Made by a program: the position numbers and the translations under genes. From NCBI GenBank assembly GCA_965214035.1, contig OZ243932.1:1007992-1071991 (forward strand): a stretch of DNA of 64,000 bases, read 5' to 3'. The notes below the pieces were generated by a model. It ran no database searches. It had not been told where the DNA came from and saw nothing but the letters and a program-made list of their open reading frames with translations. Shown here piece by piece: positions 4,966 to 59,782 of this stretch. Positions within the stretch are counted from its first letter, which is position 1; each line of letters begins with the position of its first letter. The stretch is from Gammaproteobacteria bacterium. Its GTDB lineage: Bacteria > Pseudomonadota > Gammaproteobacteria > JAJDYQ01.

Positions 4966-5186
4966 GGCTAATGGTGGATCGACTTCAACCTGACATCATG
5001 GCTATCCCGGATTGGTTATGGCCGGCTTTCTTCAGGGCATCAATCCGGTATCGTTGTTCCTGGGTAAGCTGTTTGTATCTCATCGTGCTCCTCTTTCTTG
5101 GCAGAATGGGAAAGCTGTGAATCATACAGCAGCTTACCCTATCGCCAACTCGTCAAGAGTTGCACTTACAAGTTGAATTCAGGCAT

Positions 5187-5645
5187 CTATATTATACAAG
5201 AATAAACAGAAATGCCGGTAGTGTCACAGTTTGAATTTTTCTTCTTATACGGTCCGCGCTTCTTTCCTTTCGGTTCTCTGTTTTCTATCAGATCGACAAT
5301 AAAACCCATATTGTGCAGCGTATCGGTTAATCCCGCTTCCATTGCCGGCGTGACTTTCAATGTCTTGTGAATACGGCAGAAATTATAAAACATGAAGTAC
5401 AGGGACAACGCATGAATATGGTTGTCGATTTTCTGACTGAATGCGTTGGTCAGCCGGGTGAACCGGCGCATACTCATACGCATGGTCAGGTTATGGCGTT
5501 CAACATAGCTGGTTGATACATGCTCAAACTCAGGCCGACCGATAACATGTTCACGGTGTGCGCCGATGCAAGCTGACGGGCTGTAACTCCGTTGTTCATC
5601 CGCCGGCATGTCGCCATACAACTTGACCAACCAGGCATCATCCAC
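5187..5645 (-). mobile_element. IS1-family-like transposase, C-terminal fragment
   Basis: 'YVERHNLTMRMSMRRFTRLTNAFSQKIDNHIHALSLYFMFYNFCRIHKTL' follows the InsB-like pattern R.NL..R...R.T.AFSK plus the C-terminal Y.NF.R.H motif. There is no full-length ORF. Confidence 0.5.
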
Positions 5646-5696
5646 ATCAGAACCAAAAGCTTCCTCTGCCTGCTTGTATGATATGCAGTCACTGTT

Positions 5697-8600
5697 TCAT
5701 TCATCGGCATACTGCCCGTAGCCCAGCCCACGCACATGCGGTTCCTGGTGCAGCAGCAGTCGCAGCCGCGTGAGCTCGGCGACGTCCCACCCCATCGCTT
5801 CTGCCACGGCTTCATCCCAAATGCGGCGCACTTCGCATTCACCGTCGCGGAATTGCGGTACAACCATGTCCTTGGTGTGGTTCCAACAATGAGCCAACCT
5901 GTCAACGAGAACATTATCGGAGAGATCAGGCAAACGGATGGTTTTCAGGCCCGCAGGGTTGTAATTTGGAAATTCCAAAGTCTTTCCAGGATTGCGCAGC
6001 AGTTGCAACCGCCCCGGGGTTGAGTTGAGAAAGACAGCCGCGGCCTTCGCCTGATTGAACGAGATATTCGGCACCGGCAACCAACCCACGCCGACATACC
6101 GTTCCTCTTGTGCCACGGCCGTCAAACGGCCTGTGCTGGTGCGCTGGCCGCCCGTCACCAGCAGGTGGGAGATTTGGGTCACAATCCGACTGGCATTGTC
6201 AGGGTGGTGCTTGCCATCCACGCCGGGAACCTCAATCCATTCATCCTGTGGAACATGCCTTTGGGGCGCTTGATGCTGATCAGGCATGCCTCGAATGGTC
6301 CGTTGGGCCTCGGCGGACTTGGAATAAAAGACCGGGAAAGCGCCCGGTGCATCTGCGTCAGCCTGCCTGAATTGACCCCGCCTACCCCCACCTAACACTG
6401 CGGATGGCACCATGTTCTGTTCTTCCATCCGAAGAAGCGACTTGTGAGTGGAGATATCGAACGCCGCATTGGCCAGTTCTGGTGATCGAAACACCACCGC
6501 CGTCCAATCGCCAGCCTCAATGCGCTCTGCAGACCAGTAAGAGACCTCGCCCCAACCGTCTGCCATCAGCCCTTGTTCACAGTCCAGCAAGCATCGATGA
6601 AAATCGGCAGCCTCACCATCGTCTGCCGGCATTCTGTCAAGATTGATGAACCGCGTTGGCGGCTTGTCGCCGGCATACCACCGACGCATCACCACGATGC
6701 TCTCGTTGATAGAGGTATGCTGGCTCAGGTTGATGTTCTGAGGCTGGTGCGAGGTCAATATGGTGTGTATATGGAAGTGCTTGGCAAGTGCAAGCCGCTC
6801 GCGCTGACCGGATGGGGTCGTGAGCGCTATGGTCGGGTTAATCATCGTCAGAGTTCCATCGGACCGCTCTACGCAGTGGTCTGCAAGACCAACGAAGAGC
6901 GGTCCGATGGAATTCTTGTCCACGAACTCCATCAGACCGGGGTCGGATTGCGTGAGTTTTTGCTCCATAAAGTCGGCGCGGTCGCGCAGAGCCGTCTGCG
7001 TTTCAGCGGGAAACTTCTCGCCCATCTTGGAACGGTTAGTGAACGGTGGGTTCATGATGATAATGCGCGCTTCCTTAACTGCATCTACGGTATCTTCCAG
7101 TTCGGTGTCGTCCGTCGTCTCCCACGTCGCCCGGGAACCGATGGCATCGTCACCCAAGTCCAGCTCGTTCGGTCTTTGCACGATAGCCCGTTGCCCCAGC
7201 AGCTCGAGTGTGCCAGCGTAGACTCGGTCTGGAGCATGCTTGTCGGGACCGTAGGGCATGAGATGCAGTCCCATTCTCCGGTAGCTGACTCTCTGGTTGC
7301 CCGCGGTTAATTGTGATGCAGCCAGTTGTAGCGACACCGGATTGATATCCAGCCCTTTGAGGGTGTCTTCGACGGCAATTTTCTGAAGCTGATTCAGTGA
7401 TTCGTCGTCTGCGCCATTATCGCGCGCCCTGCGCTTCATGTCGGAAAGCATGGCGGCAAGCAGCGTGCCGCTGCCACATGCCAAATCCACAATCTTGTGC
7501 CGCTGCCAGACTTCAGGGTCAGACCAGTCCTGGTCTCCGCAGGCGTCGAGCGTCAATCGCGCAGCGAGCGAGGCGGCAACGGGTCTGGTGAAGAACGCGC
7601 CGTCGGATGCCTGGTTACCCATGACGCGATTAAAAAGCGGCCCGGCGTGGTCGGCGCCCATATCCGCGTAGGTTTCTGCAATGCGCTCGGCTTCCGCAGC
7701 GAGATGATGCAGGGCGCGTTCGAGCCCGGCAGTCTTTCCTGTCGTCTCAACGGCGTAGATGGCCTCAAGGGCGGGTTCAAGCACCGGGCGGAAGTCGTGG
7801 CGCATGATTCGCTCCCACTCCCGGCTTATCTTCTGCACGACATTAGCCTGATTCTTGATCTGGGCGAGGTCGCTGATGCCCGACAGCCAGCCACCGTTAC
7901 TAATGCGCTGGTGCAGCATGGCGGCATTCATCATCAGCAGCGCAGCGATGGTGCAGCCGTCCGCCTGCTCCTTGCCTGTCTCCTTGAGCCGGTCGAGTCC
8001 GAAATGCTGGTTTAGCGCGGGCAACAATTCATCCGCACGCATGTGGTGCGCCGCTTCGGTCACGCTCGATTCCAGTATATTCAGATCGCGTATCACCCGA
8101 TTGTCGCTCAGCCCGGACTTCGAGAGCAGGTTCATCTTGATGGCGCTGCCATGATCTTCCAGCCCGCTCAGCTTGAGCATGAGTTGCCCCTGTTCCTCCG
8201 CTCGTTCCGTGGCGGTCTTGCGGGGTTTGCGATGGCTGCCCGGCTTCACGCGATTACCGCCCTCACCGGTATTGATCATCTTGCCGGCTTTGGCTTTGGT
8301 TCGCTGTATGTTCACAATGCCCCGCGCCTCGCCTGCTTTTGGCTTGTCGCGGGTTATGGAGTCCTCGCGCAGTTCAACCGTTCCATCCTTGTTTTTCTTC
8401 CCTGTGAGGACTTGCGTCAGCTCCACCGCGCTGTAATCAGCGGGTTCTTCACGGATACGCTGTATGCCAGTCGCAGCGCGGGTCTTGCCTTCCAATGCCT
8501 GTTCGACCGCTGCCTGCGCGGCGCCGGGAGGCCCCTCGACTTCGCCGTACTGTATGCGCATGCCTTCACCCATCGCGACCGCCACCAATGTGCGTTCCAC

Positions 8601-10697
8601 CGGCGGTGGTTTGGGAATGTACAGGTGCAAGAGTTCCTCAAGGTTTTCCTCGATACGCTGGTCGTGGGCGCGCAATGCGAGTAGTATCTGTCCCAACTCC
8701 TGCCACCCTTCCTCCGGGCCGCTGGTGCTCAGCCATTTCTCAGGGTCGGCAGAGGGTGGAAACACAATAGGGCAGACGATGTAGCCCAGCTCCTTGTCGG
8801 GCGCGGTCCGCATCGCTCTTCCGACGGCTTGTACGACATCAATGGGGCTCTTTCGAGCTTCCAGGAACGCCACCGCACTCAATGACGGCGAATCCGTACC
8901 CTCTCCGAATATGCCCACATTGATGATGCCGCGAGGGCTCGCCGCGTCAGCGGCAGCCAACCGTCCCTTCGCGGTTTCACGCGCCGCGGCGTTGCTCGAA
9001 GCGTCCAGGTGTTCGAGGCTGTAATCGGATGCGGCCCTGCCGTCCGCGTTCTCGCTGAGCCAGCGTGAGACCCAATCCTTCACGTTATCGGTCTGGAGGT
9101 CCGCCGCCATGTTCTTCGACTTGTCCACCGTATTCATGAAGGCGATGCACGAGCGGATGTCCACTTCTCTGCCTTGAGTCGCTCCGCCCATCGTGAGAGC
9201 AAACGCCAGGCCCCGAAGATAGTCGATGGTCGTCAGCTGGCCGCGCCCTGTGCTTTTGGTGGCCCTGGCTAGGTCGTTCGCCGTCTTGAACGCCTCGGGG
9301 TCGTTGACGCCCATAGCGATGATACGGTAGTCGGACAGCCAACGGTTACGGACTGCTTCCAGGTAGCTCTTGCGGTACAGTTCCACCCCGAAGGTGGTCT
9401 CGTCGTCCATCGAGCGCACTATCCAGTCTGGATTACCGGTGGCGCGCTTGACATCATAGATGCGCGGCGTTGCTGTTTGATAGATGCGGTACGTAACAGG
9501 AAACCTGTCGCTGTCATGGCAAATCGTGAAGTCTCGGAGACGCTTTTCCTTTTCGTTTGCGGCGGCAGACCTGGAGTTCCTGCGCTTTAGCCCTGCCGTC
9601 CTGTGTGCTTCGTCGGCAACCATGACACACGCCCTGACATCGGCGCTCAACAGGGCTTCCGATACCTTGGTGCTGCTCTGGTAAGTGCCAATGAGAACCT
9701 TGATCCCGTTGTCGATAGTGCTCTGGCGCATCCAGTCGACTATTTCGCCGGCATCGGTGGTCACCTTACCCTTCACTTCGGAAGCGCTGACATTACTGTT
9801 ATCGACGGTCGGATCAAGTGTGGTGTTGCGGCGTCCTTCTTTCCTGGGGGCATAGCCCGCCGTGACGTCCGAGCAGACTGCCAGCACGTCCAGGGAAACT
9901 GAAGCGTGTTGCAGGCATTCACGCCTTATCTGGGCAACCAGCGCGATGGACGGACACAGCACGATGGATAGCTTGCCCGGAGGCGTCAGTTCTTCGATGA
10001 TCCGGAGCGATATACGAGTTTTTCCTGTCCCGCAGGGCAGGATGATTCTACCTCGGGCCTCACCTATCGGTAGTCCACCGCTCTCCGAGCGTTCCTGTTC
10101 CCTGAGTATGCGGACACTGTTGGCAACGACTTCGTTTTGCATGCAGTTTTTTGTCTGCAGCCGTTCTTCGCCGTGGGGGTTCGGTTGGCAGTGTTCGCAC
10201 TCCCCGGATGCGGCTTGTGCCTGCCGCTGCTGAAGAAGATCGCTGGTGATGTTGACCAGCTTGAGGGGCTTTGGGTGCATTGATGCTGATTGCGTCGCGC
10301 CACTGGCAAGTGGATTATTGCCATTGGTAACGATCCAGCGCTCGGCCCAGGAGTCTGAACCGGACGCAGCCGCGAATTTGGCTATCTCGTTGCTATGGAT
10401 TGGGCCGCCGCGCCCCTCGTCGTCAAGCCGGCGCGACTTGCACTGGATTGCGATGTATTTCCCGTCGTTGCGACGCACGGCTACGGCGTCTATTCCCACA
10501 TCCAGCTTGGTGGTTTTAGGAAAGTGTTTCTTTCTATCGGGCCACTTGTCCCAGTGCCAGCACTCCGCGATGTCCCACTCCTTTATGAAAGGAGCGGAGT
10601 CCACAGTAATGTCTTCCAGCCATTTGCCATTGGTCTCCTGCGAGTTAAACTCGGCTGTGTCCTTTAGCGCCTTTTCGATGGTCTCTAAGCCGGTCAT
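5697..10697 (-). CDS. Single-polypeptide restriction-modification enzyme with Type ISP layout: Mrr-like nuclease, SF2 helicase-like ATPase, gamma-class N6-adenine methyltransferase, target-recognition domain
   Basis: 1666 aa. The N-terminal PD-(D/E)xK Mrr-like region reads 'KLDVGIDAVAVRRNDGKYIAIQCK'. Walker A is 'ILPCGTGKT' and the DEAH box is 'VMVADEAHRT'. MTase motif I 'VDLACGSGTLLAAM' precedes motif IV 'IIMNPPFTNR' (NPPF), the gamma-class order. About 400 C-terminal residues are consistent with a target-recognition domain. Size and domain order match LlaGI/LlaBIII-type enzymes. Confidence 0.85.
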   Translation of the reverse strand: MTGLETIEKALKDTAEFNSQETNGKWLEDITVDSAPFIKEWDIAECWHWDKWPDRKKHFPKTTKLDVGIDAVAVRRNDGKYIAIQCKSRRLDDEGRGGPIHSNEIAKFAAASGSDSWAERWIVTNGNNPLASGATQSASMHPKPLKLVNITSDLLQQRQAQAASGECEHCQPNPHGEERLQTKNCMQNEVVANSVRILREQERSESGGLPIGEARGRIILPCGTGKTRISLRIIEELTPPGKLSIVLCPSIALVAQIRRECLQHASVSLDVLAVCSDVTAGYAPRKEGRRNTTLDPTVDNSNVSASEVKGKVTTDAGEIVDWMRQSTIDNGIKVLIGTYQSSTKVSEALLSADVRACVMVADEAHRTAGLKRRNSRSAAANEKEKRLRDFTICHDSDRFPVTYRIYQTATPRIYDVKRATGNPDWIVRSMDDETTFGVELYRKSYLEAVRNRWLSDYRIIAMGVNDPEAFKTANDLARATKSTGRGQLTTIDYLRGLAFALTMGGATQGREVDIRSCIAFMNTVDKSKNMAADLQTDNVKDWVSRWLSENADGRAASDYSLEHLDASSNAAARETAKGRLAAADAASPRGIINVGIFGEGTDSPSLSAVAFLEARKSPIDVVQAVGRAMRTAPDKELGYIVCPIVFPPSADPEKWLSTSGPEEGWQELGQILLALRAHDQRIEENLEELLHLYIPKPPPVERTLVAVAMGEGMRIQYGEVEGPPGAAQAAVEQALEGKTRAATGIQRIREEPADYSAVELTQVLTGKKNKDGTVELREDSITRDKPKAGEARGIVNIQRTKAKAGKMINTGEGGNRVKPGSHRKPRKTATERAEEQGQLMLKLSGLEDHGSAIKMNLLSKSGLSDNRVIRDLNILESSVTEAAHHMRADELLPALNQHFGLDRLKETGKEQADGCTIAALLMMNAAMLHQRISNGGWLSGISDLAQIKNQANVVQKISREWERIMRHDFRPVLEPALEAIYAVETTGKTAGLERALHHLAAEAERIAETYADMGADHAGPLFNRVMGNQASDGAFFTRPVAASLAARLTLDACGDQDWSDPEVWQRHKIVDLACGSGTLLAAMLSDMKRRARDNGADDESLNQLQKIAVEDTLKGLDINPVSLQLAASQLTAGNQRVSYRRMGLHLMPYGPDKHAPDRVYAGTLELLGQRAIVQRPNELDLGDDAIGSRATWETTDDTELEDTVDAVKEARIIIMNPPFTNRSKMGEKFPAETQTALRDRADFMEQKLTQSDPGLMEFVDKNSIGPLFVGLADHCVERSDGTLTMINPTIALTTPSGQRERLALAKHFHIHTILTSHQPQNINLSQHTSINESIVVMRRWYAGDKPPTRFINLDRMPADDGEAADFHRCLLDCEQGLMADGWGEVSYWSAERIEAGDWTAVVFRSPELANAAFDISTHKSLLRMEEQNMVPSAVLGGGRRGQFRQADADAPGAFPVFYSKSAEAQRTIRGMPDQHQAPQRHVPQDEWIEVPGVDGKHHPDNASRIVTQISHLLVTGGQRTSTGRLTAVAQEERYVGVGWLPVPNISFNQAKAAAVFLNSTPGRLQLLRNPGKTLEFPNYNPAGLKTIRLPDLSDNVLVDRLAHCWNHTKDMVVPQFRDGECEVRRIWDEAVAEAMGWDVAELTRLRLLLHQEPHVRGLGYGQYADE

Positions 10698-11430: not shown

Positions 11431-13386
11431 TCAGGCCGAGTTGGCTGGCAGCTCTTTTTGATGGAAGAACTTTTTCACATCTTCGATGTTGGTTGTCATT
11501 GGCATGGGTGGCAGGCTATCGAGAAATATTTTCCCATATCCCCTGCTTCGGCATCGAGGGTCGCACAGCATCAGTACGCCGGTATCTGTTATGTCGCGAA
11601 TCAGACGCCCTACTCCCTGTTTCAGCATAACCACGGCGGCTGGTATCTGGTATTCAAAGAAGGGGTTTTGTCCGCGCCGCTGCATGGCATCAAGCCGTGC
11701 CTGCATGACCGGATCGCCGGGGGAGGCAAAAGGCAGTTTGTCTATAATAACGCAGGACAGCGCCTCGCCGCGCACATCAACACCTTCCCAAAAGCTGGCC
11801 GTGCCGAGCAGTATGGCATTGCCGTATGTCTTAAAGTCCTTCAGCAGCCTTTGCCGGGGGGCTTCGCCCTGCACGAGTATCGGATAATCGACATGGTCTG
11901 CTATCTGTTGCGCAGCGATCTTCAGTGCCCGATGGCTGGTGAACAGCATAAAGGTTCTGCCTCCGGCCGCTTCAATGATGGGCAGCGATTGTATGCAGAC
12001 TTCACGGGTATAAGATGAGTCTGAGGGAGCAGGCAGACCCATCGGTAAATAATTAAGGCTGTTGTTTTCATAATCAAACGGGCTGCCCAGTATCTGGGTG
12101 TCCGGTTCATCCAATCCGAGACGATCATTAAAATGTTCAAAGCTGTCGCCGACGGCCAGAGTAGCGGAGGTGAAAATCCAACTGGCGTTCATTTCTGCCA
12201 TATAGCCCTGGAAAATTTCCGCGATATTTAACGGTGTGCTGTGCAGCCCGAACCCCCGGCGGGAGGTATCGGCCCATCGCACCATTTCGTTTTCATCACC
12301 TGCATCTTCATCTGCTTCAGTGCGGGGATCTATATGGCTGATACGTTCCAGCAGATTGAGGCTGCGCTGATAGCAGCTACCCAGCCCCTTGGAACGTTCG
12401 GATTCATCGGATAACCAGTTACTGACCGCCGTCAGACTTTCTTTTGCCACATCCAGAAGCCGGGTAAAGCCCTGCCTGCCCTGCAAATCATTCCAGGAAA
12501 GCCGCTGACCATCCTGCCCCATGCTGATCCGTAAGTCGGCGATAGATTTTTCCAGTGTATCCAGTGTGTCGGGCAACTCGCTCTGGCTGCCGGACTCTTT
12601 GATGTGTTCAGATCGCGTATCGGCGCAAAGATTATGTAGTTGGCGCGAGGTCAGTGAAAGGCCAAAGAAACGGGTAGCCACTTCCGGTAGTTGATGCGCT
12701 TCGTCAATAATAAATATGTCGGCACCCGCCAGAATATCACCGAACCCCTGTTCCTTGAGCGCCATATCGGCACAGAACAGATGATGGTTAATAACCACCA
12801 GATCGGCTGCAAGCGCCTCCCGTCGTGCCTTCAGAACATGGCATTTTGCATAGTCTTCACACTCCGAACCCACACAGTTTTCAGTTGTTGAGGTTACCAG
12901 CGGCCAGATAAATGATCCCTCTTCCACATCATCGACCTCGGCAATATCACCGGTCAATGTGCGGCCTGCCCAATCATTGATCAGCTGAAATTCATGCTGA
13001 TGACGCCGGCTGCGGGTATCGCCTGCACTGCGATTGACATTCAGTCGGTGGGTGCAGAGATAGTTTGCGCGCCCTTTCAGCAGAGCGACGGTCACGGGCA
13101 CATTGAGTGCGTGGCGAATGACGGGCAAATCCTGATGGAATAACTGATCCTGCAGGTTTCTGGTACCCGTCGCTATGATAGTGCGCTTGCCGGAGAGCAT
13201 CGCAGGTACCAGATAGGCGAAAGTCTTGCCAACGCCGGTTCCGGCTTCAGTCACCAGCACGGCACCTTCATCAATAATGGTACGGGCGATGCGATCAGCC
13301 ATTTGCTGCTGGGCCTCGCGTGGCGCAAAGCCGGCCAGAGATTCACTGAGCGCACCATCACCAGAAAGATATTCTGACGCAGACAT
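11431..13386 (-). CDS. dinG: ATP-dependent DNA helicase, DinG/YoaA family (Rad3-like, Fe-S)
   Basis: N-terminus 'REAQQQMADRIARTIIDEGAVLVTEAGTGVGKTFAYLVPAML', a DEAH-like box 'IFIIDEAHQL', conserved cysteines. At 651 aa it is closer to YoaA than to canonical DinG. Confidence 0.85.
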   Translation of the reverse strand: MSASEYLSGDGALSESLAGFAPREAQQQMADRIARTIIDEGAVLVTEAGTGVGKTFAYLVPAMLSGKRTIIATGTRNLQDQLFHQDLPVIRHALNVPVTVALLKGRANYLCTHRLNVNRSAGDTRSRRHQHEFQLINDWAGRTLTGDIAEVDDVEEGSFIWPLVTSTTENCVGSECEDYAKCHVLKARREALAADLVVINHHLFCADMALKEQGFGDILAGADIFIIDEAHQLPEVATRFFGLSLTSRQLHNLCADTRSEHIKESGSQSELPDTLDTLEKSIADLRISMGQDGQRLSWNDLQGRQGFTRLLDVAKESLTAVSNWLSDESERSKGLGSCYQRSLNLLERISHIDPRTEADEDAGDENEMVRWADTSRRGFGLHSTPLNIAEIFQGYMAEMNASWIFTSATLAVGDSFEHFNDRLGLDEPDTQILGSPFDYENNSLNYLPMGLPAPSDSSYTREVCIQSLPIIEAAGGRTFMLFTSHRALKIAAQQIADHVDYPILVQGEAPRQRLLKDFKTYGNAILLGTASFWEGVDVRGEALSCVIIDKLPFASPGDPVMQARLDAMQRRGQNPFFEYQIPAAVVMLKQGVGRLIRDITDTGVLMLCDPRCRSRGYGKIFLDSLPPMPMTTNIEDVKKFFHQKELPANSA

Positions 13387-29618: not shown

Positions 29619-30956
29619 CTACCAATTCAGCTTCCACTGTGCGCCGACGCTGTGGCGCGGGTTATTATCATCCTGCTCGCGGCGGATGGCCTTGATATCC
29701 AGCTTCGACTTCAGGCCAGCCGGGTTCGACAACAGACGCCAGCCGAGGGTCAGGTCACGTTTCGCATCGGAGGCCGACAGGCTCGCATAGGGGATGCCGG
29801 TGGCATCGTCTGTCAGGGCAAAGCCCCACTCGCCTTTCAGCGTCCAGCGGCTCGATACGGCAGCAGTATGTCCGTTGTCTTCTTCCTCCAGCGCATCCGT
29901 CAATGAATCCGATAACAACCGATCCAGACCACTGGCCGCCGGTGCATTGCCGTACTCATGGCGCAGACTGAACGACGGGCCATAGGCCGAGTTTGGCCAC
30001 GCCTCGTAGCGCAGTGAGCCGGACAGACCCCACTCCTCACGCTCGGCAGCCTCATGCTCCAGCAGATAGCGACCGCGCACATCCACCGTCAAACCCTTGG
30101 CCGGTGTCTGCCAGCTCAGGCCGCCGCCCAGCTCCAGACCAAAGCCTTCGCTGGTATCGCCGCCGTCATAACGCAGACCCAGCTCCAGTTCCGGTGTCAG
30201 ACGCACACCGTCCTCTTCCGGTAACTGCCAGGACCAGGCCAGACCCATGCGGAAACGCTGCGTATCCGCCTCGGTGCCCGCCATGACGCGGGAATCATCC
30301 GCCTCAATACGCGCCAGTGTCAGGCCCGAAATCAGCTCCAGGGTCAAACCGCCCTCTTCCACCGGACGCTCCAGCAGCGTACCGCGCAGACCGGCGGTGG
30401 CCGATAGCTGCACCAGATTGTGCTTCGATTCCATACCGGTTTGTGAAGTCTGAGTCTGCTTCAGGTCGCCCCGCCCATAGCTGGCGGCACCCCACAGTTG
30501 CAGGCGTTCGCTCAGGTCGTAGCGCAGATACGGCAGCATGGAAACCAGCATACCGGACAACTCGCCTTCGTCCGATGCACCCTGCCATTCGCCATCGCTG
30601 TCGCTGTAGGCCAGTGCCAGACCGACCAGCGTCTGACCGTTGTCGCGGTCAATGCCCAGCATGGCCGTGGTCACTTCACCGTCTATGCTGAGGCTGAGAT
30701 CGTCTTCACCGTCTTTGTACTTCGTATAGGCCGCCTGACCCCAGATGGAGGTGCCGTCCTGATCCGTGAATGTGAAATGACTACCACGCAGCAACGACGG
30801 CAGCAGCTTCGGCAGTGACAGGGTGCGTGACAGCTTGCGCGGACGATCCGACGAACCGGCACCCAACTGCTCAATGCCCATCACACTGGCATCCGGGACT
30901 GCCGCGACTGGACAGCAGACGCGCCGCATTGAATGACTGACCGCGCGGCAGACCGT
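29619..30956 (-). CDS. Autotransporter beta-barrel translocator domain, in a separate ORF from its passenger
   Basis: A beta-strand-rich region ends in the aromatic terminal motif '...SVGAQWKLNW', typical of type Va autotransporter barrels. There is no signal peptide. The frame opens at 30956 just after the passenger stop, and the first ATG is at 30929. Confidence 0.7.
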   Translation of the reverse strand, partial: TVCRAVSHSMRRVCCPVAAVPDASVMGIEQLGAGSSDRPRKLSRTLSLPKLLPSLLRGSHFTFTDQDGTSIWGQAAYTKYKDGEDDLSLSIDGEVTTAMLGIDRDNGQTLVGLALAYSDSDGEWQGASDEGELSGMLVSMLPYLRYDLSERLQLWGAASYGRGDLKQTQTSQTGMESKHNLVQLSATAGLRGTLLERPVEEGGLTLELISGLTLARIEADDSRVMAGTEADTQRFRMGLAWSWQLPEEDGVRLTPELELGLRYDGGDTSEGFGLELGGGLSWQTPAKGLTVDVRGRYLLEHEAAEREEWGLSGSLRYEAWPNSAYGPSFSLRHEYGNAPAASGLDRLLSDSLTDALEEEDNGHTAAVSSRWTLKGEWGFALTDDATGIPYASLSASDAKRDLTLGWRLLSNPAGLKSKLDIKAIRREQDDNNPRHSVGAQWKLNW

Positions 30957-30961
30957 TCAGA

Positions 30962-38554
<7,593 letters not shown>

Positions 38555-38769
38555 TACATTTCCTCCTGTGAGCCAATTTGTATGACATTTGTTCCATTGC
38601 AGGCAGGTCCGACATTACCGGCTGACCTGCACCATTTGCCCATTATGTATCAGACCGGCAGCATACTGCAAGTTTTCCGAACCGGCAACATTTCCAGCAT
38701 CATTCTAATATGAAAACGGGGCACCGGAGCAGGTTTTCCCGGCAGGTCTCTGAACAGGCGGTGTCTGCA

Positions 38770-39168
38770 TCAGTAACCCCAGAAATTTTTGAGCATGTCG
38801 GAATAGCCCTGATAAAGCCCGGAGTCGGCTTCGATGACAGAGAAATCACCCTGGACCTTGAGCATCGGCACGGTCTGTGCCACCGCTTGCGTCGCCAACC
38901 CGAACAGCAGTGGCAGTCCGAGCAATGACACTACCGCCGCACGGCGCAGCCAGCCGGCGGTGCGGGCTGTCACAGAATGGAAACTGTCGGAAAAAGACCG
39001 GCGCGTCAGCCGGCCAGGAGGCTCAGAGGCACTTGCCCCGCGACAGGAATGCACTGCAGAGCGGCCGGCATCGATGGCCAACATCAGATATACCTTCCCA
39101 TTTGGGGAGAGGGTTATGCGGCCACACTCTGCTGCTCTTTGCGGGTTGTTCAAAATGGCTGTTTTCAT
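38770..39168 (-). CDS. Hypothetical ORF upstream of the autotransporter
   Basis: ORF only. The region is GC-rich and another ORF overlaps it on the opposite strand. Confidence 0.12.
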   Translation of the reverse strand: MKTAILNNPQRAAECGRITLSPNGKVYLMLAIDAGRSAVHSCRGASASEPPGRLTRRSFSDSFHSVTARTAGWLRRAAVVSLLGLPLLFGLATQAVAQTVPMLKVQGDFSVIEADSGLYQGYSDMLKNFWGY

Positions 39169-39437
39169 TGGTTCACTGCCTCCTGTTGGTCCGTTTCGGA
39201 GACAATCCCCGTGATGTCAATGTTCTGTTAATTATAGATGCCTTATTTGTGCTGCCAAGTATTTTTTCGCAACCGGAGGTTTTATTTTCAGACCGGTTGT
39301 GCGGAGGCGGCCGGCTGATGGCGCATTCATCCGTCTCTTTGCTTTGTAAATCAATCAGTTAGCCTGGTTCGTCGGCGTTCTTTATCGGTCTCGCTGTGGC
39401 ATCAGGCTGTGGATGTTTTGCCGGCATGGTTTTTTGA

Positions 39438-41924
39438 TTATTCGGATGTTCGCAGCAGTGTTGCCGGTGTCTGATGGTGTTGCTGGCGCAGTATTGCCCA
39501 GCCAGTCAGCATGACCAGCAACATGCCCGCCATGATGACGATCAGGGCCAGGGGTATGTTGAGTCGGAATCCGATATCGAGCAGTTCTACTGATACCCAC
39601 CATGCGATGATATTGGCCAGTATGACGGCTGTCAGGCCGGAACAGGCTCCTATGAGCAGAAATTCGATGGTCTGCGCACGGCTGATCAGGTGACGGGTGG
39701 CTCCCATGGCTCGCATCAGTGCATTTTCGTGTTGGCGCAGGCGCCGTGTTGACATGACCATGGCAGTGACCAGCAGCACGGCTGCCGCCAGGGTGAACAG
39801 GAAGGCCGCTTCCGCGGCATAGCTGACTCTGTTGATCACGGTCCGTACCCGTGACATCAGTGCTTCGACATCCAGTATGGTCACCGATGGATATTGCTGT
39901 ACGAGTCGATCCATCAGGTGGTTGTTTGCGACCGGCAGGTAGAAGCTGCTGATGTATTGTGTCGGCATATCGGCCAGCATCCGGCGGGTTCCTATCACGA
40001 AGAAATTGACCTTGAAGGAGTCCCAACTGACTTCGCGCAGGCTGGTGATGCGGCCTGTTACCTGCCTGCCCGCTACGTCGTAGGTGATTGTGTCACCGGT
40101 CTGTATGCCGAGCACTTCGGCAATGCCGCTTTCTACTGACCATTGTGGCTGCGGGTCGCCGGCCTGCCACCATTGTCCGGCTGACAGGTTGTTATGGGCA
40201 GGCAGTGTGTCGTCCCATGACAGGTTAAATTCGCGACGCAGCATTCGTTTGGCGCGCGCTGTGTTGTAGTCGTTACCGGTCACGGTGCGGTTGTTGATTT
40301 TGATCAGGCGCCCGCGAATCATGGGGAAAAACTGTATGTTTTTCAGTCCATTGTCCGACAGCCATCGTTGTACCTGTTGTATTTCCGGCGGCTGGATGTT
40401 GATCAGAAATATGTTGGGTGTGTCTGCCGGCAGGCGGTTTCGCCATTGGTCCAGCAGATCGGTGCGTATCAGGGTCAACAGGGTGATAAATATAAATGAC
40501 AGGCCAAATACGCTGATCGCCATGAGGGTTTCCCGCCGGTGGCGAATCAGCGCTTGTATGCCGAATTTCATGGTTTCGGAAAGCCGGCGGGAGAGATGGT
40601 GCAGTATGAGCAGCAGGCCCGCCGCCAGCAGCAGTAGCAGCAACAGGGCAGCAGCCAGGGCTGCCAGTATTATGGCCATCAGTTGCAGGTCCCGCGTTAT
40701 GCCGTACAGTATCAGGCATAGTGCAACCAGACCGAATATCAGCGGCCAGACGACCGGTTGCAGTTCGTCCGGTACGCTGCGCAGCACTCTCATGGGCGAT
40801 ACGGATACCAGACGCCAGTAAGCCGGCAACGAGAAAGCCAGTACCAGCAGAAAACCGAGCAGGCTTGACCAGAGCGCCGGGCTGTGTTCGGCCGGCGGCA
40901 GGGTCGATGACATGTATTGTTGCAACAGGCTGGCGAGCAGGCTTTGCAGGCCGTAGGCTGCCAGCAGGGCCAAAGCGCTGGCCAGTATGCTCAGTATGCT
41001 CAGTTGTGACAGGTACAGTGCGGTTATTTGCAGGCGTGTCAGGCCAATGGTGCGCAGCACGGCGGTATGAATCAGCCGCTTTTGTACCCAGTTCTGCATG
41101 GCTACCCATATCGCCAGACAGGCCAGCATGATGGTCACTATGAGGCTCAGGGCCAGAAAGCGTTCTGCTCGTTCCAGTGAGGCCCTGACTTCCGGTCGGG
41201 AGTCCCGCACGGATTGTATCTGGTAGTGGCTGCCCAGGCGCGGTTGTAGCCAGGCGCGGTAGGCTTGCATGGTTTGCTCCGTGCCGGCCAGCAGTAGCTG
41301 GTGTCTGACTCGTGATCCTTCTCCAATAAGCCCGGTCGCTGCCATGTCCGCCAGATTCAGCATGACGCGCGGTGCCAGTGAGAACAGGCTGCCACCGCGG
41401 TCCGGTTCCTGTTCTATTACGGCATCTATGGTGAAAGTGGCTTTGCCGAGGGTTATCGTGTCGCCTGGTTGCAGGGCCAGTTTGCGCAGCAGGCCCTTTT
41501 CTGCCCAGATTGTGCCCGATGCGGGAGGGTTCTGCTGGCTGGTATAGGTGCCCTGCCCTTTGTTCAGTCGCAGTCGGCCTCGCAGCGGATAGCCTTCGGT
41601 TACGGCTTTGACTTCCACCAGCGCGGTGTCGTCTGTGCTGATCAGGACGCTCGGAAATTCCTGAAACAGGCTGGTGCGGATGGCGCGGTCGCCGGCTTCT
41701 TTTAGCCAGCTTTGGGGTATCGGGCGGGATGAGGCAATGACCAGATCGGCTCCCAGTAGTTCGTTGCTTTGTTGTACCAGGGTTTTGGCAATGCGATTGG
41801 TCAGCAGGCCAACCGTGGCCATGGCAGCTATGGTCAGTGCCAGTGCCAGAAAGACCAGCCGCATTTCGGCTTGCAGGCTTTCGCGCCGCAGAAAGCGCAG
41901 GCCATGCCGGAGTATGCCGGTCAT
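39438..41924 (-). CDS. ybbP: ABC transporter permease with two FtsX-like domains (YbbP family)
   Basis: 828 aa, two four-TM FtsX modules separated by periplasmic domains (MacB-like). Divergent from tesA as in E. coli. Confidence 0.85.
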   Translation of the reverse strand: MTGILRHGLRFLRRESLQAEMRLVFLALALTIAAMATVGLLTNRIAKTLVQQSNELLGADLVIASSRPIPQSWLKEAGDRAIRTSLFQEFPSVLISTDDTALVEVKAVTEGYPLRGRLRLNKGQGTYTSQQNPPASGTIWAEKGLLRKLALQPGDTITLGKATFTIDAVIEQEPDRGGSLFSLAPRVMLNLADMAATGLIGEGSRVRHQLLLAGTEQTMQAYRAWLQPRLGSHYQIQSVRDSRPEVRASLERAERFLALSLIVTIMLACLAIWVAMQNWVQKRLIHTAVLRTIGLTRLQITALYLSQLSILSILASALALLAAYGLQSLLASLLQQYMSSTLPPAEHSPALWSSLLGFLLVLAFSLPAYWRLVSVSPMRVLRSVPDELQPVVWPLIFGLVALCLILYGITRDLQLMAIILAALAAALLLLLLLAAGLLLILHHLSRRLSETMKFGIQALIRHRRETLMAISVFGLSFIFITLLTLIRTDLLDQWRNRLPADTPNIFLINIQPPEIQQVQRWLSDNGLKNIQFFPMIRGRLIKINNRTVTGNDYNTARAKRMLRREFNLSWDDTLPAHNNLSAGQWWQAGDPQPQWSVESGIAEVLGIQTGDTITYDVAGRQVTGRITSLREVSWDSFKVNFFVIGTRRMLADMPTQYISSFYLPVANNHLMDRLVQQYPSVTILDVEALMSRVRTVINRVSYAAEAAFLFTLAAAVLLVTAMVMSTRRLRQHENALMRAMGATRHLISRAQTIEFLLIGACSGLTAVILANIIAWWVSVELLDIGFRLNIPLALIVIMAGMLLVMLTGWAILRQQHHQTPATLLRTSE

Positions 41925-42577
41925 AGCCGAATCACTCGATCACAGCGTTCGCTTAACTGCATGTCGTGGGTTGCCAGTACGATGGCTGTTCGGTGTTGTT
42001 CCTGCAAGTTGAACAGCAGGTCCGATATCTTTGCGCCGGTTTTATGGTCCAGGTTGCCGGTTGGTTCGTCGGCAAACAGGATTTGTGGCTGAATCACAAA
42101 GGCTCTGGCTATCGCTACCCGTTGTTGTTCGCCACCGGATAGCTGCGATGGGTAGTGGTGCAGGCGCTTTTCCAGCCCGACTTCTGTCAGGGCCTGACGT
42201 GCCTTGTCACGGGCATCGGTCAGGGATAGCAGTTCCATCGGCATGAGGACGTTATCCAGGGCATTGAGCGTGGAAAGCAGGTGGAAGGATTGGAATATGA
42301 ATCCCACTTGTCCGGCCCGCAGTCGGGCACGGTCGTCTTCATCCAGTTCTGAAAGGTTCCGACCCAGCAGTTGTACGGTACCGCTGGTGGGCAGGTCAAG
42401 ACCAGCCAGCAGCCCCAGTAGTGTCGATTTGCCGGAACCGGAGGCTCCTACTATGGAGATGGATTCGGCCGCCTGTAGCTGTAAATTAAAATCAGACAGG
42501 ATTTGAAACCTGTCATCGGTGGTGGCAACCTCTTTACTGAGTCCTTTTACCTTTAAGATGCTTTCCATGCTATCCAT
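41921..42577 (-). CDS. ybbA: ABC transporter ATP-binding protein YbbA
   Basis: Walker A 'GASGSGKST', signature 'LSGGEQQRVAIARA', Walker B 'ILFADEPTGNLD'. Overlaps ybbP by 4 nt. Confidence 0.9.
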   Translation of the reverse strand: MDSMESILKVKGLSKEVATTDDRFQILSDFNLQLQAAESISIVGASGSGKSTLLGLLAGLDLPTSGTVQLLGRNLSELDEDDRARLRAGQVGFIFQSFHLLSTLNALDNVLMPMELLSLTDARDKARQALTEVGLEKRLHHYPSQLSGGEQQRVAIARAFVIQPQILFADEPTGNLDHKTGAKISDLLFNLQEQHRTAIVLATHDMQLSERCDRVIRL

Positions 42578-44306: not shown

Positions 44307-45491
44307 CTATTGCGCTATCAATCTATACAGCCCGTTTATGCCACCGTCACTGGTAAAATAAAGCACTCCATCCGGCCCTGTTCCCAACCCCATCGGTCTG
44401 GCCAGTCGCGCACCGCGTACATTTTGAAATCCGGTTATAAAGTCATCAACATGGGTGGCCTTACCGTCGGCAAAACGGACAAGCACCAGTTTGGGCGGGC
44501 GGCGAGTAGCGGGGTCGCCCGAACCGGAACCATCGGGTTGGGTGCCCCATGAGCCATGCAGGGCGACCAGTGCATCTCCATGGTAGGTTTTGGCAAGCCT
44601 GCCATCGGTAATAAAATGCACATCCATAGGCGCACTGCGGGCCGGAAAGGTTGCTGCCGGGATGATAGCATCAGTTCTTGGTGATCTGCCCCGGATACAG
44701 TTATCCCGGTTAATTTTGTTGCCATCATATTGGTACCAGGGCATACCGTGAAAGGAGTTTTGATCCAGCTTTGAGAAGTATTCCGGTGGTTGCTCATAGC
44801 CCTGGTGGTCGGGCCCGTTATTGCTGGCGTACATGATTTCAGTATCAGGATGCCAGTCAAATCCTATCGGGTTTCGCAGGCCACTTGCCCAGGGTTTCCA
44901 GATCGGCGGCGTGGCGGTTTCATCCAGCACCATAACTCCACCCCGACGATCCCGCCAGGGATAGCTGTTATCCAGATATTCATTACTACAGTTTCCGGTG
45001 ATGCCCAGGCCAAGGTAAAGACGTTTATCGGGTCCAATCTTCAGTGTTCGACTGTTATGCCCGCTTCCGCCAGGTATCGGGATAATGTCTTCAAGTTCGG
45101 ATTCGTCGAGTATTTCTTCAGACGGATCGTAGGGTATTCGGGACAGGCTGGAGGTTTGTGCAATATATAGATAGCCATTGCGTATGGCCAGGCTGTGGGG
45201 ATAGTCAGGCAGGATCAGTAACGGCGGTTCCGGTTCATTGTAGGGCGGTGGCAGGCGATAGATGTGCCCGGAGCGTGAACCAACCAGCATATTGCCCGCA
45301 TCGTCAAAAATAAATAATCGCGGGCGTTGCATGTCGGTGGTCAATAATTCCAGTTGATAGCCTGTCGGTACTTTGAGGGTGAAAATTTCATCACCAACTT
45401 CGGCCACGTGTAAATCATGCTGGATATTTCCCTGTTCTGCCCGCAGCTCGCCTGCCAGTACCAGCAAAAATATACCGATTAACCGCGACAT
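44307..45491 (-). CDS. Soluble PQQ-dependent glucose/sorbosone dehydrogenase-family beta-propeller protein (YliI-like)
   Basis: Probable start MSRLIGIFLLVLAGELRA (signal peptide). 'GLRNPIGFDWHPDTEIMYASNNGPD' and 'HGSWGTQPDG' are typical of this family. Confidence 0.65.
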   Translation of the reverse strand: MSRLIGIFLLVLAGELRAEQGNIQHDLHVAEVGDEIFTLKVPTGYQLELLTTDMQRPRLFIFDDAGNMLVGSRSGHIYRLPPPYNEPEPPLLILPDYPHSLAIRNGYLYIAQTSSLSRIPYDPSEEILDESELEDIIPIPGGSGHNSRTLKIGPDKRLYLGLGITGNCSNEYLDNSYPWRDRRGGVMVLDETATPPIWKPWASGLRNPIGFDWHPDTEIMYASNNGPDHQGYEQPPEYFSKLDQNSFHGMPWYQYDGNKINRDNCIRGRSPRTDAIIPAATFPARSAPMDVHFITDGRLAKTYHGDALVALHGSWGTQPDGSGSGDPATRRPPKLVLVRFADGKATHVDDFITGFQNVRGARLARPMGLGTGPDGVLYFTSDGGINGLYRLIAQ

Positions 45492-45522
45492 GGCGATAGT
45501 GATCTTCGATAAAAGCAAACAC

Positions 45523-46581
45523 TTATTCCCACAGATCAACATGTATGCCCTGTGCTTCCAACGCATCGGCTTTGGCTGCGAGCCAGCGCTGGAAATTCGG
45601 TTGTTCTTTGTATCCGCCCGATGAGACGTAGTCCATGATACCCTGCGTATGGAAAGCTCTGAGGTATGCTTCCGCACGAAAAACTTCCCGACCTTTGTCG
45701 TCAAAAAAGACAAAGCTGGGGCTGTTCTGGATATTCAATTCTCTGGCCCAGTCCCGTGCCTGTATCTGACGTCCGTCTGGCACCGTTATTCTGGCTGAGG
45801 ACCACATATCGAGCAGTACGATGTCCAGACGGGCCATTTCCCGCTTCGATTCCTCTCGTTGCAGAATGTCGAGGTGCAGTTCATCGCAGAGCAGGCATTG
45901 TTTTTGTTCAAACATGACCAGTAATGGTTTGCCTGTGCCGCGGTGCCCTGCCCTCAGATCATAGGGGGGCTGGATATAGCTGTCCTCTATATGCAGCCTG
46001 CCAGTTGCCTTGTTCTGGGGTTGTTCACCATAGTATTCACGAAATGTTGAGGCTGTTTCGTGCTTCCCGGCAACATATTGTAAGGCCGCCATGAATTTGC
46101 CCGGATGGTAGTAGCCATTGATACGCAGTACGACCCTACCCTGCCCGTCCAACATTAACATGGTCGGTGTGAACATGACCCTAAGACCCTCGGCAAATTG
46201 CTTTTCGGTGGAGTCCTCACCGTTTATATCGACCACTTCTCTATCGCCCCACATGTTAATGGCAATGGTATCGAAGTGTTTTTGGGAGTATTCAGAAATG
46301 TCACGGTTGCCATAGTTATCTTCCAGCAATTTTTTGCAGTAGGGGCAACCGTCCTGATAAAAATACAGCACGACACGTTTGTTTTGCTCGGCAGCCTCGG
46401 CAATGTCTTCCTGGATATCGAGAAAAGATTGTTTGAACCATTTCGGCTTTTCTGCATAACCTGGATTTTCCAGGCCTTCACTGAGCTGTTCCCGTTGCCC
46501 TGCCGGTGTATCGGCATACAGGGGCGATAAACCTGACCATAAGGCGAATATGAGTGTCAGTATGTTGGTGGGTGAACGCAT
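45523..46581 (-). CDS. Exported thioredoxin-fold protein with two CxxC domains
   Basis: Signal peptide MRSPTNILTLIFALWSGLSPLYA. Motifs 'YFYQDGCPYCKKL' and 'MFEQKQCLLCDEL' sit in two Trx-like modules. Confidence 0.65.
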   Translation of the reverse strand: MRSPTNILTLIFALWSGLSPLYADTPAGQREQLSEGLENPGYAEKPKWFKQSFLDIQEDIAEAAEQNKRVVLYFYQDGCPYCKKLLEDNYGNRDISEYSQKHFDTIAINMWGDREVVDINGEDSTEKQFAEGLRVMFTPTMLMLDGQGRVVLRINGYYHPGKFMAALQYVAGKHETASTFREYYGEQPQNKATGRLHIEDSYIQPPYDLRAGHRGTGKPLLVMFEQKQCLLCDELHLDILQREESKREMARLDIVLLDMWSSARITVPDGRQIQARDWARELNIQNSPSFVFFDDKGREVFRAEAYLRAFHTQGIMDYVSSGGYKEQPNFQRWLAAKADALEAQGIHVDLWE

Positions 46582-46801
46582 GGCTTTTACCTCTTGCTCC
46601 GTTTGATTTCTCTGCTCTATTATTAACCCGATCACAGATATTATCCACCTGAAAAAAAGATTTCCTTGTACTCAAAATACTGGTTCTTTTGTGGACTCCT
46701 GCTCTCGCAGGAATGGCAGGCAGAATCAGGTCTTCAAGAAAGGTTTTATGCCGGGACTCAGTCTTATGGAAACCCTGAATGAACCAGAGTTCCCCGGCTC
46801 A

Positions 46802-57559: not shown

Positions 57560-59782
57560 TTATAAGCCCGGAGTCCGCTTGTATTTCTCTCTGGCCGCCT
57601 TCAGAGCACTGTTTTTTGGATTAACTTTCAGGCCGGCATCCAGCATCTCTACAGCCTGGTCATACTGCCCTGCTTCTGCCAGCGATGTCGCCAACACCAG
57701 ATAAGACTCGGCAATCGCCGCTGGTGCAATATCAGTAATAAACAATGCCCCGGGAGGCAATCGCTCTTCCAGGATTTTCAAAAACTCTACTGCCTTGTCT
57801 GGACGCCCGGCTCTGGTTTTTATCAGGAGGCTGCGCTTGACCGCTTCAGCCATAGCACTTTCCAGAGATTCGCGACGTTTTTTTATGCGCCCCTGACGGG
57901 CGTCTTCATCAGCTTTTTTCTGTTCTTCCGAGGCAAGATAACCCGCATCCGAAAATCGGTTCATTTCAGAGCGCAAAAACAGCAAAGCATCATCTTCGGG
58001 ATACAGGCTGAGAGCCTGTTTTAGCATGGCATCCGCATCCAACAGTTGCCTCTCGGCAATCGCGGCATCAATCATCTCCGCATAAACAACTGGAATCCGT
58101 ATATCCCTACGGAGGGCATTTCCAGGAGCCGCCTTGTCCAGTGTTTCAAAGAGCTGTGGTACGGTATGCTCTTCACCAGCAGCCGTCACATCAAGCTCGT
58201 CCACAATCTGCTGTAACGAAGTATCAATGAAGTCAATAACCCGTGTTTTATGGTGTGCAATACGGTTATTTAGTTGTTTGACTTCCGCTGACTCTGGATA
58301 TAACTGTCGAGCCTCTTTCATAAGAGTCGTGGCCAGCTGGAAATTATTGGGACCTCCCAAATCGCCGGCAAGCGCATCATCTATCTGCTGGCTGTAATAG
58401 GCAACCAGACTGTCACGTGCCAGAGACAGCACATTCTGAACCGAAATATCATTGCGATCATCGAGACTCGAAAGTGTTTCTTCCACAATTGCCGGATCAG
58501 AAGAACCAAGCAGTACAACAAGCTCGGCCTCACGTTGCTGTTTAAGGTAGTTTTGAACTGGATAAATCGCGATCAAAGCCAGTGAAACTATCCCCACCAC
58601 GGCGGCCAGAGAGTATTTCTCCAGATTGCCGCCCTTATTTCTGAGGCCATTTAAGAATACCTGAACATTGGCTGGTGCTTTATCTCTGTCAAATGACAGA
58701 CCCTTTCGCAGCATCTTGTTTTGATGGCGCGTCAGCTTCCTCAGTGGCTTGGGCACCATTTCATGGTCGCGCGCCATAGTGGCAGGAAATTTATCGAATG
58801 GATGGCTACCCGACAGCAGAATATAACTCACCACAGCAAGCGCATAGATGTCGTCACGCGGGTCAGGTTCTTCCTCTTCCAGCATTTCACAACTGGCATA
58901 GGAAGGCGTAAGCGCACCGAGCTTTCCAGCATCAAATAAGGTTGTGTCTTGCTGACCCGGCTTTTTCACTGCTCTGGCAATGCCAAAATCGAGAACCTGA
59001 ACACCATGACCATCAGTGACAAAGGCATTCCCCGGCTTAAAGTCAGAGTGCACGATATTGCTGGAGTGTGCATAGCCTAATGCATTGCCCATATCTTCAA
59101 TAAGGGGCATTGCTTCTGCAAAGCTCATGCCTTCCTCAGGGACATGCTCGCTGATAAAGTCATTCAAAGGCTTCCCTTCCAGCAACTGCATCGTCATATA
59201 GACCATGGAGTCATAACGGTCAAAGTCATAAACGGTCGCAATGTTGGGATGCGCGAGTTTTTGTGTCCGGCTGCATTCACGCTGCAATGAAATGAATGAC
59301 TCCGGATGCCTCTTGAAATTATCATTCAGCACTTTAATGGCGAGGTATGGATTGCGGTCACTGGCCTCAACCTTGATCAGATCTCGGGCCTTGTAAACTA
59401 TCCCCATACCACCTTCGCCAAGGACTTCCAATAGTTCAAAACGATCCTTGATAACAGTTCCCGGCCCTACTGATTCAACTACCCCTTGAGCATCGGTTTC
59501 GATAAAAAACTGCCTTGGATCATTGGTGCGACTGGTCTCATGGTCGGTCTTGCTGGTGGTGTCTATCGGATCAATCGTATCCGACGCTACCAGCCTGGAA
59601 AGCAGGCGGTTGTATTGCGCATCATTGATCAAACCCTCACCCCGTGCAACATCCAATGCCTGAAGCAGGCCGGACAAGGCCTCGGAGTCTGCCTTGAGCA
59701 GACGTACCAACTCCTCTTCAAGCTCTTCAAAAGAAGCGCCTTTCTCCGCAAAATCGACTATAATCTGTTTGAAATCCTGCAA
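57560..59782 (-). CDS. Hanks-type serine/threonine protein kinase with TM segment and C-terminal TPR repeats
   Basis: Gly-loop 'LGEGGMGIVYKA', 'AIKVL', catalytic 'HSDFKPGNAFV', 'DFGIA'. A hydrophobic TM follows at 'LAAVVGIVSLALIAIY', then TPR-like repeats. 740 aa. Confidence 0.85.
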   Translation of the reverse strand: MQDFKQIIVDFAEKGASFEELEEELVRLLKADSEALSGLLQALDVARGEGLINDAQYNRLLSRLVASDTIDPIDTTSKTDHETSRTNDPRQFFIETDAQGVVESVGPGTVIKDRFELLEVLGEGGMGIVYKARDLIKVEASDRNPYLAIKVLNDNFKRHPESFISLQRECSRTQKLAHPNIATVYDFDRYDSMVYMTMQLLEGKPLNDFISEHVPEEGMSFAEAMPLIEDMGNALGYAHSSNIVHSDFKPGNAFVTDGHGVQVLDFGIARAVKKPGQQDTTLFDAGKLGALTPSYASCEMLEEEEPDPRDDIYALAVVSYILLSGSHPFDKFPATMARDHEMVPKPLRKLTRHQNKMLRKGLSFDRDKAPANVQVFLNGLRNKGGNLEKYSLAAVVGIVSLALIAIYPVQNYLKQQREAELVVLLGSSDPAIVEETLSSLDDRNDISVQNVLSLARDSLVAYYSQQIDDALAGDLGGPNNFQLATTLMKEARQLYPESAEVKQLNNRIAHHKTRVIDFIDTSLQQIVDELDVTAAGEEHTVPQLFETLDKAAPGNALRRDIRIPVVYAEMIDAAIAERQLLDADAMLKQALSLYPEDDALLFLRSEMNRFSDAGYLASEEQKKADEDARQGRIKKRRESLESAMAEAVKRSLLIKTRAGRPDKAVEFLKILEERLPPGALFITDIAPAAIAESYLVLATSLAEAGQYDQAVEMLDAGLKVNPKNSALKAAREKYKRTPGL

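Follow-up and report, generated by a model that had tools for sequence, protein, structure and literature searches.

The window analysed here, a 64,000-nucleotide stretch of a gammaproteobacterial contig, carries on its minus strand, at 29619–38554, two long open reading frames (ORFs) that an original prediction had described as a classical autotransporter of roughly 3,000 residues whose passenger and β-barrel lie apart. We find that the interval is one gene with two +1 frameshifts 86 nt apart, because deleting two bases restores a single ORF. Unbroken, it would be a single gene of a large autotransporter-type adhesin family, coding for about 3,000 residues; the present copy is probably a recent pseudogene in a multi-copy recombining family, with insertions that are real mutations. 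The split is thus no new secretion architecture: it reflects the usual decay of a gene within a recombining family of adhesins or, with lower probability, a consensus artefact that likewise stems from the mixing of paralogues.

The upstream ORF (2,530 aa, 30962–38554) comprises a poly-proline N-terminal extension, a putative signal peptide, an immunoglobulin-like (Ig-like)/Calx-beta passenger and the start of a linker, and ends in ...HHRFTASRPAGSVG (...AIEHMLGGLHHRFTASRPAGSVG) at a premature TAA (30964–30962). The downstream ORF, which differs in frame from the passenger ORF, runs for 436 aa from its first ATG (29619–30929). Its frame has a TGA at 30959–30957, is open from 30956, leaving a gap of 5 nt on the minus strand after the end of the passenger ORF, and terminates in ...GAQWKLNW; the coding sequence in this frame (29619–30899) supplies the last part of the linker together with the outer-membrane β-barrel and finishes with KLNW and the stop codon at 29619–29621. 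Pfam recognizes Calx-beta in the upstream ORF (8.8e-25) and the autotransporter β-domain PF03797 in the downstream ORF. The ORF list and the translations agree with the original prediction on the extent, stops and ends of both ORFs, and every coordinate it gave is correct. Its statement that no single indel can fuse the two frames also holds, because their open stretches do not overlap: the passenger frame (A) closes at 30964–30962 and the barrel frame (C) opens at 30956. What it overlooked is a conserved peptide bridging the passenger and barrel ORFs, encoded in the third frame (B), which is open from 31035 to 30874.

About 28 codons in this third frame (GNLNGLPRGQSFNAARLLSSRG) form the bridge. 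When the repaired C-terminus was compared with the window using tblastn, the matches fell in three successive frames, and in paralogues and homologues the sequence ...WLPRFGLTAIEHMLGGLHHRFTAS-DQPGLSGNLNGLPRGQSFNAARLLSSRG-VPDASVLGIEQLGAGSSDRPRKLS... runs uninterrupted across the junction. The conserved linker motif MQAAQQMWLPRFGLTAIEHMLGGLHHRF (30995–31078; present in 19/19 family members listed) is the final in-frame stretch of the passenger ORF, and the bridging segment DQPGLSGNLNGLPRGQSFNAARLLSSRG (30901–30985) follows in the third frame only, with 1 base different from locus L012. The latter is the intact junction of a close relative (gene P0040), to which window positions 30790–31090 (minus strand) are 96% identical in DNA sequence; the alignment contains exactly two gaps, each one extra base on the window side, 86 nt apart. 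At the first of them (30983–30986) the window reads CATC[G]AGACC and the intact homologue CATCAGACC, so that the extra base is G30986, or A30983 if the ancestor had a Ser-Ser-Gln allele; removal of the base restores ...RFTASDQPGLSG. At the second (30895–30900) the window reads GCGGC[A]GTCCCGG and the intact homologue GCGGCGTCCCGG, the extra base being A30900, or one C of 30895–30897 if the ancestor had the Gly-Ser-Pro allele of the paralogue P0166. Deletion of 30986 and 30900 leaves 8,934 nt with a single terminal stop, that is, one ORF of 2,977 aa. Alignment to intact homologues, which the original prediction had proposed as the way to find the expected junction, has in this manner located both 1-nt insertions and the third-frame bridge, and the locus has the make-up of a pseudogene: its frame is broken relative to intact homologues and homology continues past the break. 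Within the linker the first insertion would shift translation out of frame A into frame B and the second out of B into C, and the passenger ORF as sequenced would stop 8 codons past the first insertion. Because the passenger stops early and the barrel is without start context or signal peptide, this copy would make no surface protein.

As judged from the sequences of its members, fusion of passenger and barrel is the norm in this family. The barrel profile, searched against 1.84 billion representative proteins, yielded 11,122 members, of which 6,290 reach E<=1e-30. Among the 150 top-ranking of these 6,290 representatives, nearly all are 900–6,310 aa long and carry a complete barrel profile at the extreme C-terminus. 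An intact fused homologue of 1,633 aa (P0041) is located on a 2.57-Mb contig, and in two loci of metagenome-assembled genomes (MAGs) the reading frame passes through the junction and stays open to the contig end, over at least 1,363 aa in L001 and at least 1,017 aa in L002. Closer still, three intact paralogues of 3,025, 2,909 and 4,083 aa (P0165, P0166 and P0167, respectively) are found on the same 2,513,604-bp contig as the window, and the same genome also has many family fragments beside them. Passenger and barrel therefore share one polypeptide in the homologues but not in the window copy, whose barrel ORF is P0001 in the depositor's gene calling.

The position of the two insertions relates them to differences between paralogues. 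The backbone of the gene is P0166-like (81% identity over aa 1097–2977, with a near-identical barrel), and a patch from AIEHM to DASV carries the P0167/P0040-type allele. Both insertions sit on the two codons that separate these alleles, Ser/Asp (ASSQPG versus ASDQPG) and Ser/Val (GSPD versus GVPD). At the first site, dropping one base gives the peptide of one allele and dropping a neighbouring base gives that of the other; the second site is exact only for the P0167-type allele, the P0166-type requiring a further Val-to-Ala change just downstream. If the P0166-type allele, with inferred codons, is TCGAGCCAG ... GGCAGTCCGGAT, then the window sequence TCGAGACCAG ... GGCAGTCCCGGAT would be the exact union of the two alleles. 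Insertions that coincide with allele differences are what gene conversion between diverged paralogues, with patchy repair of the heteroduplex, would be expected to leave, and we infer from the sequences compared that they arose in an exchange between paralogues, with gene conversion as the favoured route. Other copies attest that decay of the family in this lineage is, at the sequence level, demonstrably real: P0004 and P0044 have the same 39-aa internal barrel deletion in two separate copies, P0002 and P0043 have frameshifted C-termini, and a related MAG contains clusters of isolated barrel 3′ ends, including one inverted pair. In P0015 a truncated integrase (phage-integrase N-terminal domain, PF13495) is fused in frame to a barrel fragment, which suggests a recombinase gene disrupted by, or inserted beside, a barrel copy. 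Autotransporter genes of Campylobacter have been described as decaying in host-adapted bacteria (PMC7168839), and the present family resembles them in being a multi-copy family with lineage-specific frameshifted and truncated copies. It differs in that the lesions coincide with paralogue allele differences in a mosaic patch, a coincidence that suggests recombination rather than point mutation.

Further fragments of the family were seen in passing. P0015 lies on the source contig outside the window, and its recombinase part resembles integron integrases by eye. In the related MAG JAJDYQ01 (L003, 1536–3148; L004–L009, first ~900 nt) there are many isolated copies of the last ~115–170 barrel codons, several of which share the breakpoint NAPAASGLDRLL and are preceded by REP-like repeats (translated ...SFLRKQE...). 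Three barrel-end copies are clustered in L003, one of them inverted (a 349-nt inverted repeat, 92% complementary).

The original prediction had set recent pseudogenisation beside compound sequencing errors in a GC-rich stretch. Pseudogenisation is the favoured explanation of the two, and an error in the consensus keeps a place in the argument, but not one of the GC-rich homopolymer type, because the sites lie outside long homopolymers and on codons that vary between paralogues: the first insertion is outside any homopolymer on either reading, and the second involves no homopolymer on the L012 reading and otherwise only a C doublet (CC to CCC). General indel error is low as well, because about 25 conserved genes of the window agree with their family profiles over the full length or nearly so (YoaA, PBP1b, GlcDEF, GlnS, TrpS, ScpAB and MsrA among them), and the rest of the 8.9-kb gene is unbroken. 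There remains the case of an intact gene to which assembly or consensus calling added the extra bases by merging reads of near-identical paralogue linkers, a case we consider rather unlikely while taking it seriously. At least five paralogues are near-identical in this linker, both insertions fall on allele-variable codons and the first site resembles superimposed alleles, and a contig of a relative, at 7x coverage, has a heavily fragmented passenger. Other observations tell against it: a further substitution separates the window from the P0166-type allele at the second site, the same assembly holds three intact paralogue ORFs of 8.7–12.2 kb, the naming of contigs in related assemblies hints at long, accurate reads that would span the whole linker, and other pseudogenes of the family, such as those with the shared 39-aa deletion, cannot be artefacts. 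Several points nevertheless weigh against our preference for real mutations. A consensus caller working from mixed paralogue reads can produce the same allele-coincident pattern. The union of alleles relies on the inferred Ser-Ser-Gln and Gly-Ser-Pro codons, and neither allele is present in any of the loci compared at the DNA level. Two random indels no more than 86 nt apart in 8.9 kb have a chance of only about 2% by our own arithmetic, so that a local cause is needed. The junction is known from one assembly, since the sole syntenic contig (L014, 92.8% identity) stops 40 nt short of the gene, and it found no match in two JGI metagenome scans; a protein search with the passenger C-terminus returned distant proteins only. 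Finally, both ORFs are otherwise intact, and therefore any inactivation must be very recent.

The other ways of explaining the junction fare much worse. Programmed recoding would require two successive +1 shifts (UCG-A-GAC and GGC-A-GUC) giving a low level of full-length protein; skipping one A per site does yield exactly the P0167-type ASDQPG...RGVPDAS, and a rare AGA codon occupies the A site at the first shift, yet slippery repeats, a stimulatory Shine–Dalgarno sequence and a stop-codon context are all lacking, the arrangement is not conserved (every homologue examined is in frame) and two inefficient events in series would leave a negligible yield, which makes this hardly credible. It is just as hard to believe that passenger and translocator are naturally two genes, translated separately in the manner of two-partner secretion, even though two long and otherwise intact ORFs adjoin on one strand. 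Type Vb secretion is defined by a TpsB translocator with a signal peptide and POTRA domains (PMC6555100). Here, there is no such separate protein: the linker continues in the third frame, in which alone the 28 conserved codons between the ORFs are legible, Pfam reports no POTRA domain, and the barrel ORF is without a signal peptide, as the original prediction had noted (by eye, there is no hydrophobic N-terminal segment). The 'unusual split arrangement' that it had entertained is contradicted by this bridge, by the missing signal peptide and by homologues that are single ORFs; nor did we encounter the naturally separate passenger and barrel genes, with a signal peptide on the barrel, that it had named as a possible outcome, the homologues being almost all fused. 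Reversible phase variation at the junction itself, finally, might be thought of given the clear hypermutable tract at the 5′ end of the same locus, but it is most improbable, as neither shift site has a simple-sequence repeat and two independent shifts would be needed to regain the frame. Recent pseudogenisation of a single fused gene is accordingly the explanation that we favour.

The repaired product would be ordered as a poly-proline N-terminal extension, a Sec signal peptide, tandem Ig-like/Calx-beta domains spanning some 2,400 residues, a linker and a C-terminal outer-membrane barrel. A Shine–Dalgarno-like AGGAGG (38562–38567), read from the sequence, lies 7 nt 5′ of the ATG at 38554–38552. 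The N-terminus consists of this ATG, 40 residues, twelve prolines, about 45 residues and then the signal-peptide-like ...LFLPILLIGLPTQVAAQ. The putative signal peptide itself (RRLCHSLFLPILLIGLPTQVAAQ, aa 96–118, 38201–38269) has a hydrophobic core and VAAQ, is preceded by 95 residues including the Pro12 stretch and is conserved in L012 and L011. The passenger, an acidic sequence without Cys in which Thr, Asp and Gly are abundant, includes ten copies of a repeat of about 110 aa, the model of which is an Ig-like β-sandwich (pLDDT 93.5) with PapD/ASH-like domains, the Calx-beta CBD and the SbsC Ig domains as best structural matches. The β-helix that is usual, but not obligatory, in type Va passengers is accordingly replaced in the model by an Ig-like sandwich. 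Between passenger and barrel the linker bears the conserved signature MQAAQ..WLPRFG..EHMLGGL..RF.

In the barrel, PF03797 scores 57.8 bits against a cut-off of 26 over residues 71–279 of the 445-aa barrel frame, as expected of type Va; in relatives the match is weaker (P0006, 42 bits) or absent (P0041), and it spans only the first ~10 strands (profile positions 1–219 of 255). The barrel is not recognized by NCBIfam, and a sequence profile search of the PDB gave no match. The AlphaFold2 model has 18–19 β segments over 385 residues (59–444; window 29622–30782). Against 12-stranded barrels its TM-scores are 0.48–0.62, the best (0.62) being normalized to the target, and no solved barrel superposes well. 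Residues 1–58 are modelled with pLDDT 24–35 and without a helix, in a query that lacked the upstream linker owing to the frameshifts. As the definition of type Va includes a 12-stranded β-barrel (PMC6555100), the modelled barrel of ~18 strands is apparently oversized. Of the label 'classical autotransporter', what stands is the PF03797 domain; the passenger, by contrast, is Ig-like and not β-helical, and the modelled barrel has ~18 strands. The protein is autotransporter-type and only loosely classical. If intact, it would use the type V route, with Sec export and Bam-assisted barrel insertion, and passenger export would be driven by sequential folding of the β-sandwich domains.

Comparison with known systems places the protein between several groups. 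With type Va autotransporters (AIDA-I, BrkA, NalP and EspP) it shares the order of signal peptide (putative here), passenger and C-terminal barrel, PF03797 above the gathering score and an aromatic C-terminal residue (KLNW here), and autotransporter barrels are among its best structural matches, with highest sequence identities of 16–18%. It departs from them in its string of Ig-like/Calx-beta sandwiches instead of a β-helix, in its 18–19 modelled β segments with no pore helix in the model (again for a query without the upstream linker) and, in this copy, in having passenger and barrel out of frame. Long rod-like passengers of tandem Ig-like domains, with Calx-beta, are what it has in common with type Ve proteins (intimin and invasin) and with the giant adhesins of the RTX/LapA type; sequential domain folding is thought to drive the export of tandem Ig-like passengers (PMC6555100). 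However, the barrel of type Ve proteins is N-terminal whereas it is C-terminal here, and unlike in the RTX/LapA-type adhesins there is neither a type I secretion signal nor a LapG-type retention module.

The second feature of interest is the homopolymer at the 5′ end of the gene, noted by the original prediction as a poly-G tract and indeed G35 on the plus strand at 38399–38433. On the coding strand it is an in-frame C35 that follows the start codon and precedes the signal peptide, made up of 11 CCC codons and a twelfth proline codon, CCT, that takes the last two Cs, and it is a candidate slipped-strand phase-variation switch. Equivalent in-frame tracts occur in L011 (C18, 8052–8069, within the intact P0041 gene), L012 (C26, 629–654) and L013 (~C27, ~12040–12070), such that in 4/4 complete 5′ ends examined an in-frame tract separates the signal peptide from a start codon further upstream. 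A Shine–Dalgarno-like motif precedes the start in the window, L011 and L013; for L012 the open frame alone was checked. Sequences 5′ of the tracts are unrelated to one another and those 3′ of them are homologous. L011 has no alternative start downstream of its tract, which therefore must be translated there. Homopolymer phase variation calls for a long tract within the ORF, placed after the start codon but ahead of the functional domains, and this is the arrangement found; the differences in tract length (18, 26, ~27 and 35) are between paralogues and species only.

Intragenic poly-C is an established phase-variation device in NalP and MspA of Neisseria meningitidis (PMC3723659), and as in those genes the tract sits within the 5′ part of an autotransporter coding sequence. 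The tracts of the present family are different in that they are 18–35 nt in length, two to three times longer, and code for poly-proline ahead of the signal peptide, and their switching is proposed from the arrangement. By this analogy phase variation at the poly-C tract is plausible, and the tract would switch the protein on and off. The 'hot spot of on/off variation' that had been proposed for the locus is thereby plausible at the tract, given its presence at 4/4 complete 5′ ends examined, but not at the junction, where no repeat is able to slip back.

A wider reading would make the broken copy part of a surface-variation system in uncultured gammaproteobacteria that are probably sponge-associated. 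It has three components that would have to hold jointly: giant adhesins of Ig-like type, forming a large family and borne on a non-canonical autotransporter barrel of ~18 strands; very long poly-C/poly-proline tracts that switch each copy individually; and a continual reshuffling in which gene conversion transfers patches between expressed copies and silent or fragmentary ones, the frameshifted or truncated copies serving as donor cassettes. We regard this conjunction as improbable. If the barrel size and the tract switching were confirmed, the limits of type V secretion would widen, and these two traits would illustrate how uncultured bacteria that live with hosts alter their surfaces. Annotators should merge the two ORFs under a single entry, marked as a frameshifted autotransporter gene, and not list a passenger-only protein and an orphan barrel. 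The family is very large (6,290 representative clusters at E<=1e-30), was given a name by none of the tools applied and may be little described; its Ig-like passengers, apparently oversized barrel and long 5′ poly-C/poly-proline tracts are the traits that make it of interest.

Upstream of the gene, a 132-aa ORF on the same strand (38770–39168) is the 5′ remnant of another paralogue, with 85% identity to L013 12086–12335. It retains an N-terminal extension, a signal peptide and about 19 mature residues, the mature start matching P0167, and of its poly-C tract only the decayed CCCTCTCCCC (39104–39113) is left. A sigma-70-like site 5′ of the remnant (39231–39258, minus strand; TTGGCA-16-TATAAT, 11/12, a consensus match only) could also drive the main gene. 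The autotransporter and an adjacent MacB-like ABC pair (39438–42577) together form a segment at ~29.6–42.6 kb with 57–62% GC, compared with ~50% in the flanks and in the genome. We regard the locus as a lineage-specific island, because in a related complete genome (L015) mltF is followed by unrelated genes and by no autotransporter. The window is free of tRNA genes, and neither a tRNA nor an integrase lies at the island boundaries. The nearest named MltF homologues, from Thiohalobacter and a Granulosicoccaceae MAG, are ~50–53% identical.

Elsewhere in the window, an ankyrin-repeat protein (768 aa, 16669–18975) and a eukaryote-like Ser/Thr kinase (740 aa, 57560–59782) are encoded on the minus strand. 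Ankyrin-repeat proteins and eukaryote-like Ser/Thr kinases are typical of host-associated or symbiotic bacteria. One family match is named for the sponge symbiont AqS3, and the three observations together suggest, at the level of gene content, a host-associated lifestyle. A second high-GC block (59%; 4217–10697, minus strand) encodes a fusion of an Mrr-like nuclease and a ResIII helicase (1,666 aa), which has a C-terminal fragment of HerA (154 aa) and a fragment of an IS1 transposase (152 aa) as its neighbours on either side. A DNA methylase lies nearby at 1931–2875, and by its gene content the region looks like a decaying defence island. At 44307–46635 (minus strand), ORFs of 468 aa (GSDH-like) and 370 aa (thioredoxin-like) overlap by ~190 nt as listed, which probably reflects an over-extended TTG start rather than a frameshift.

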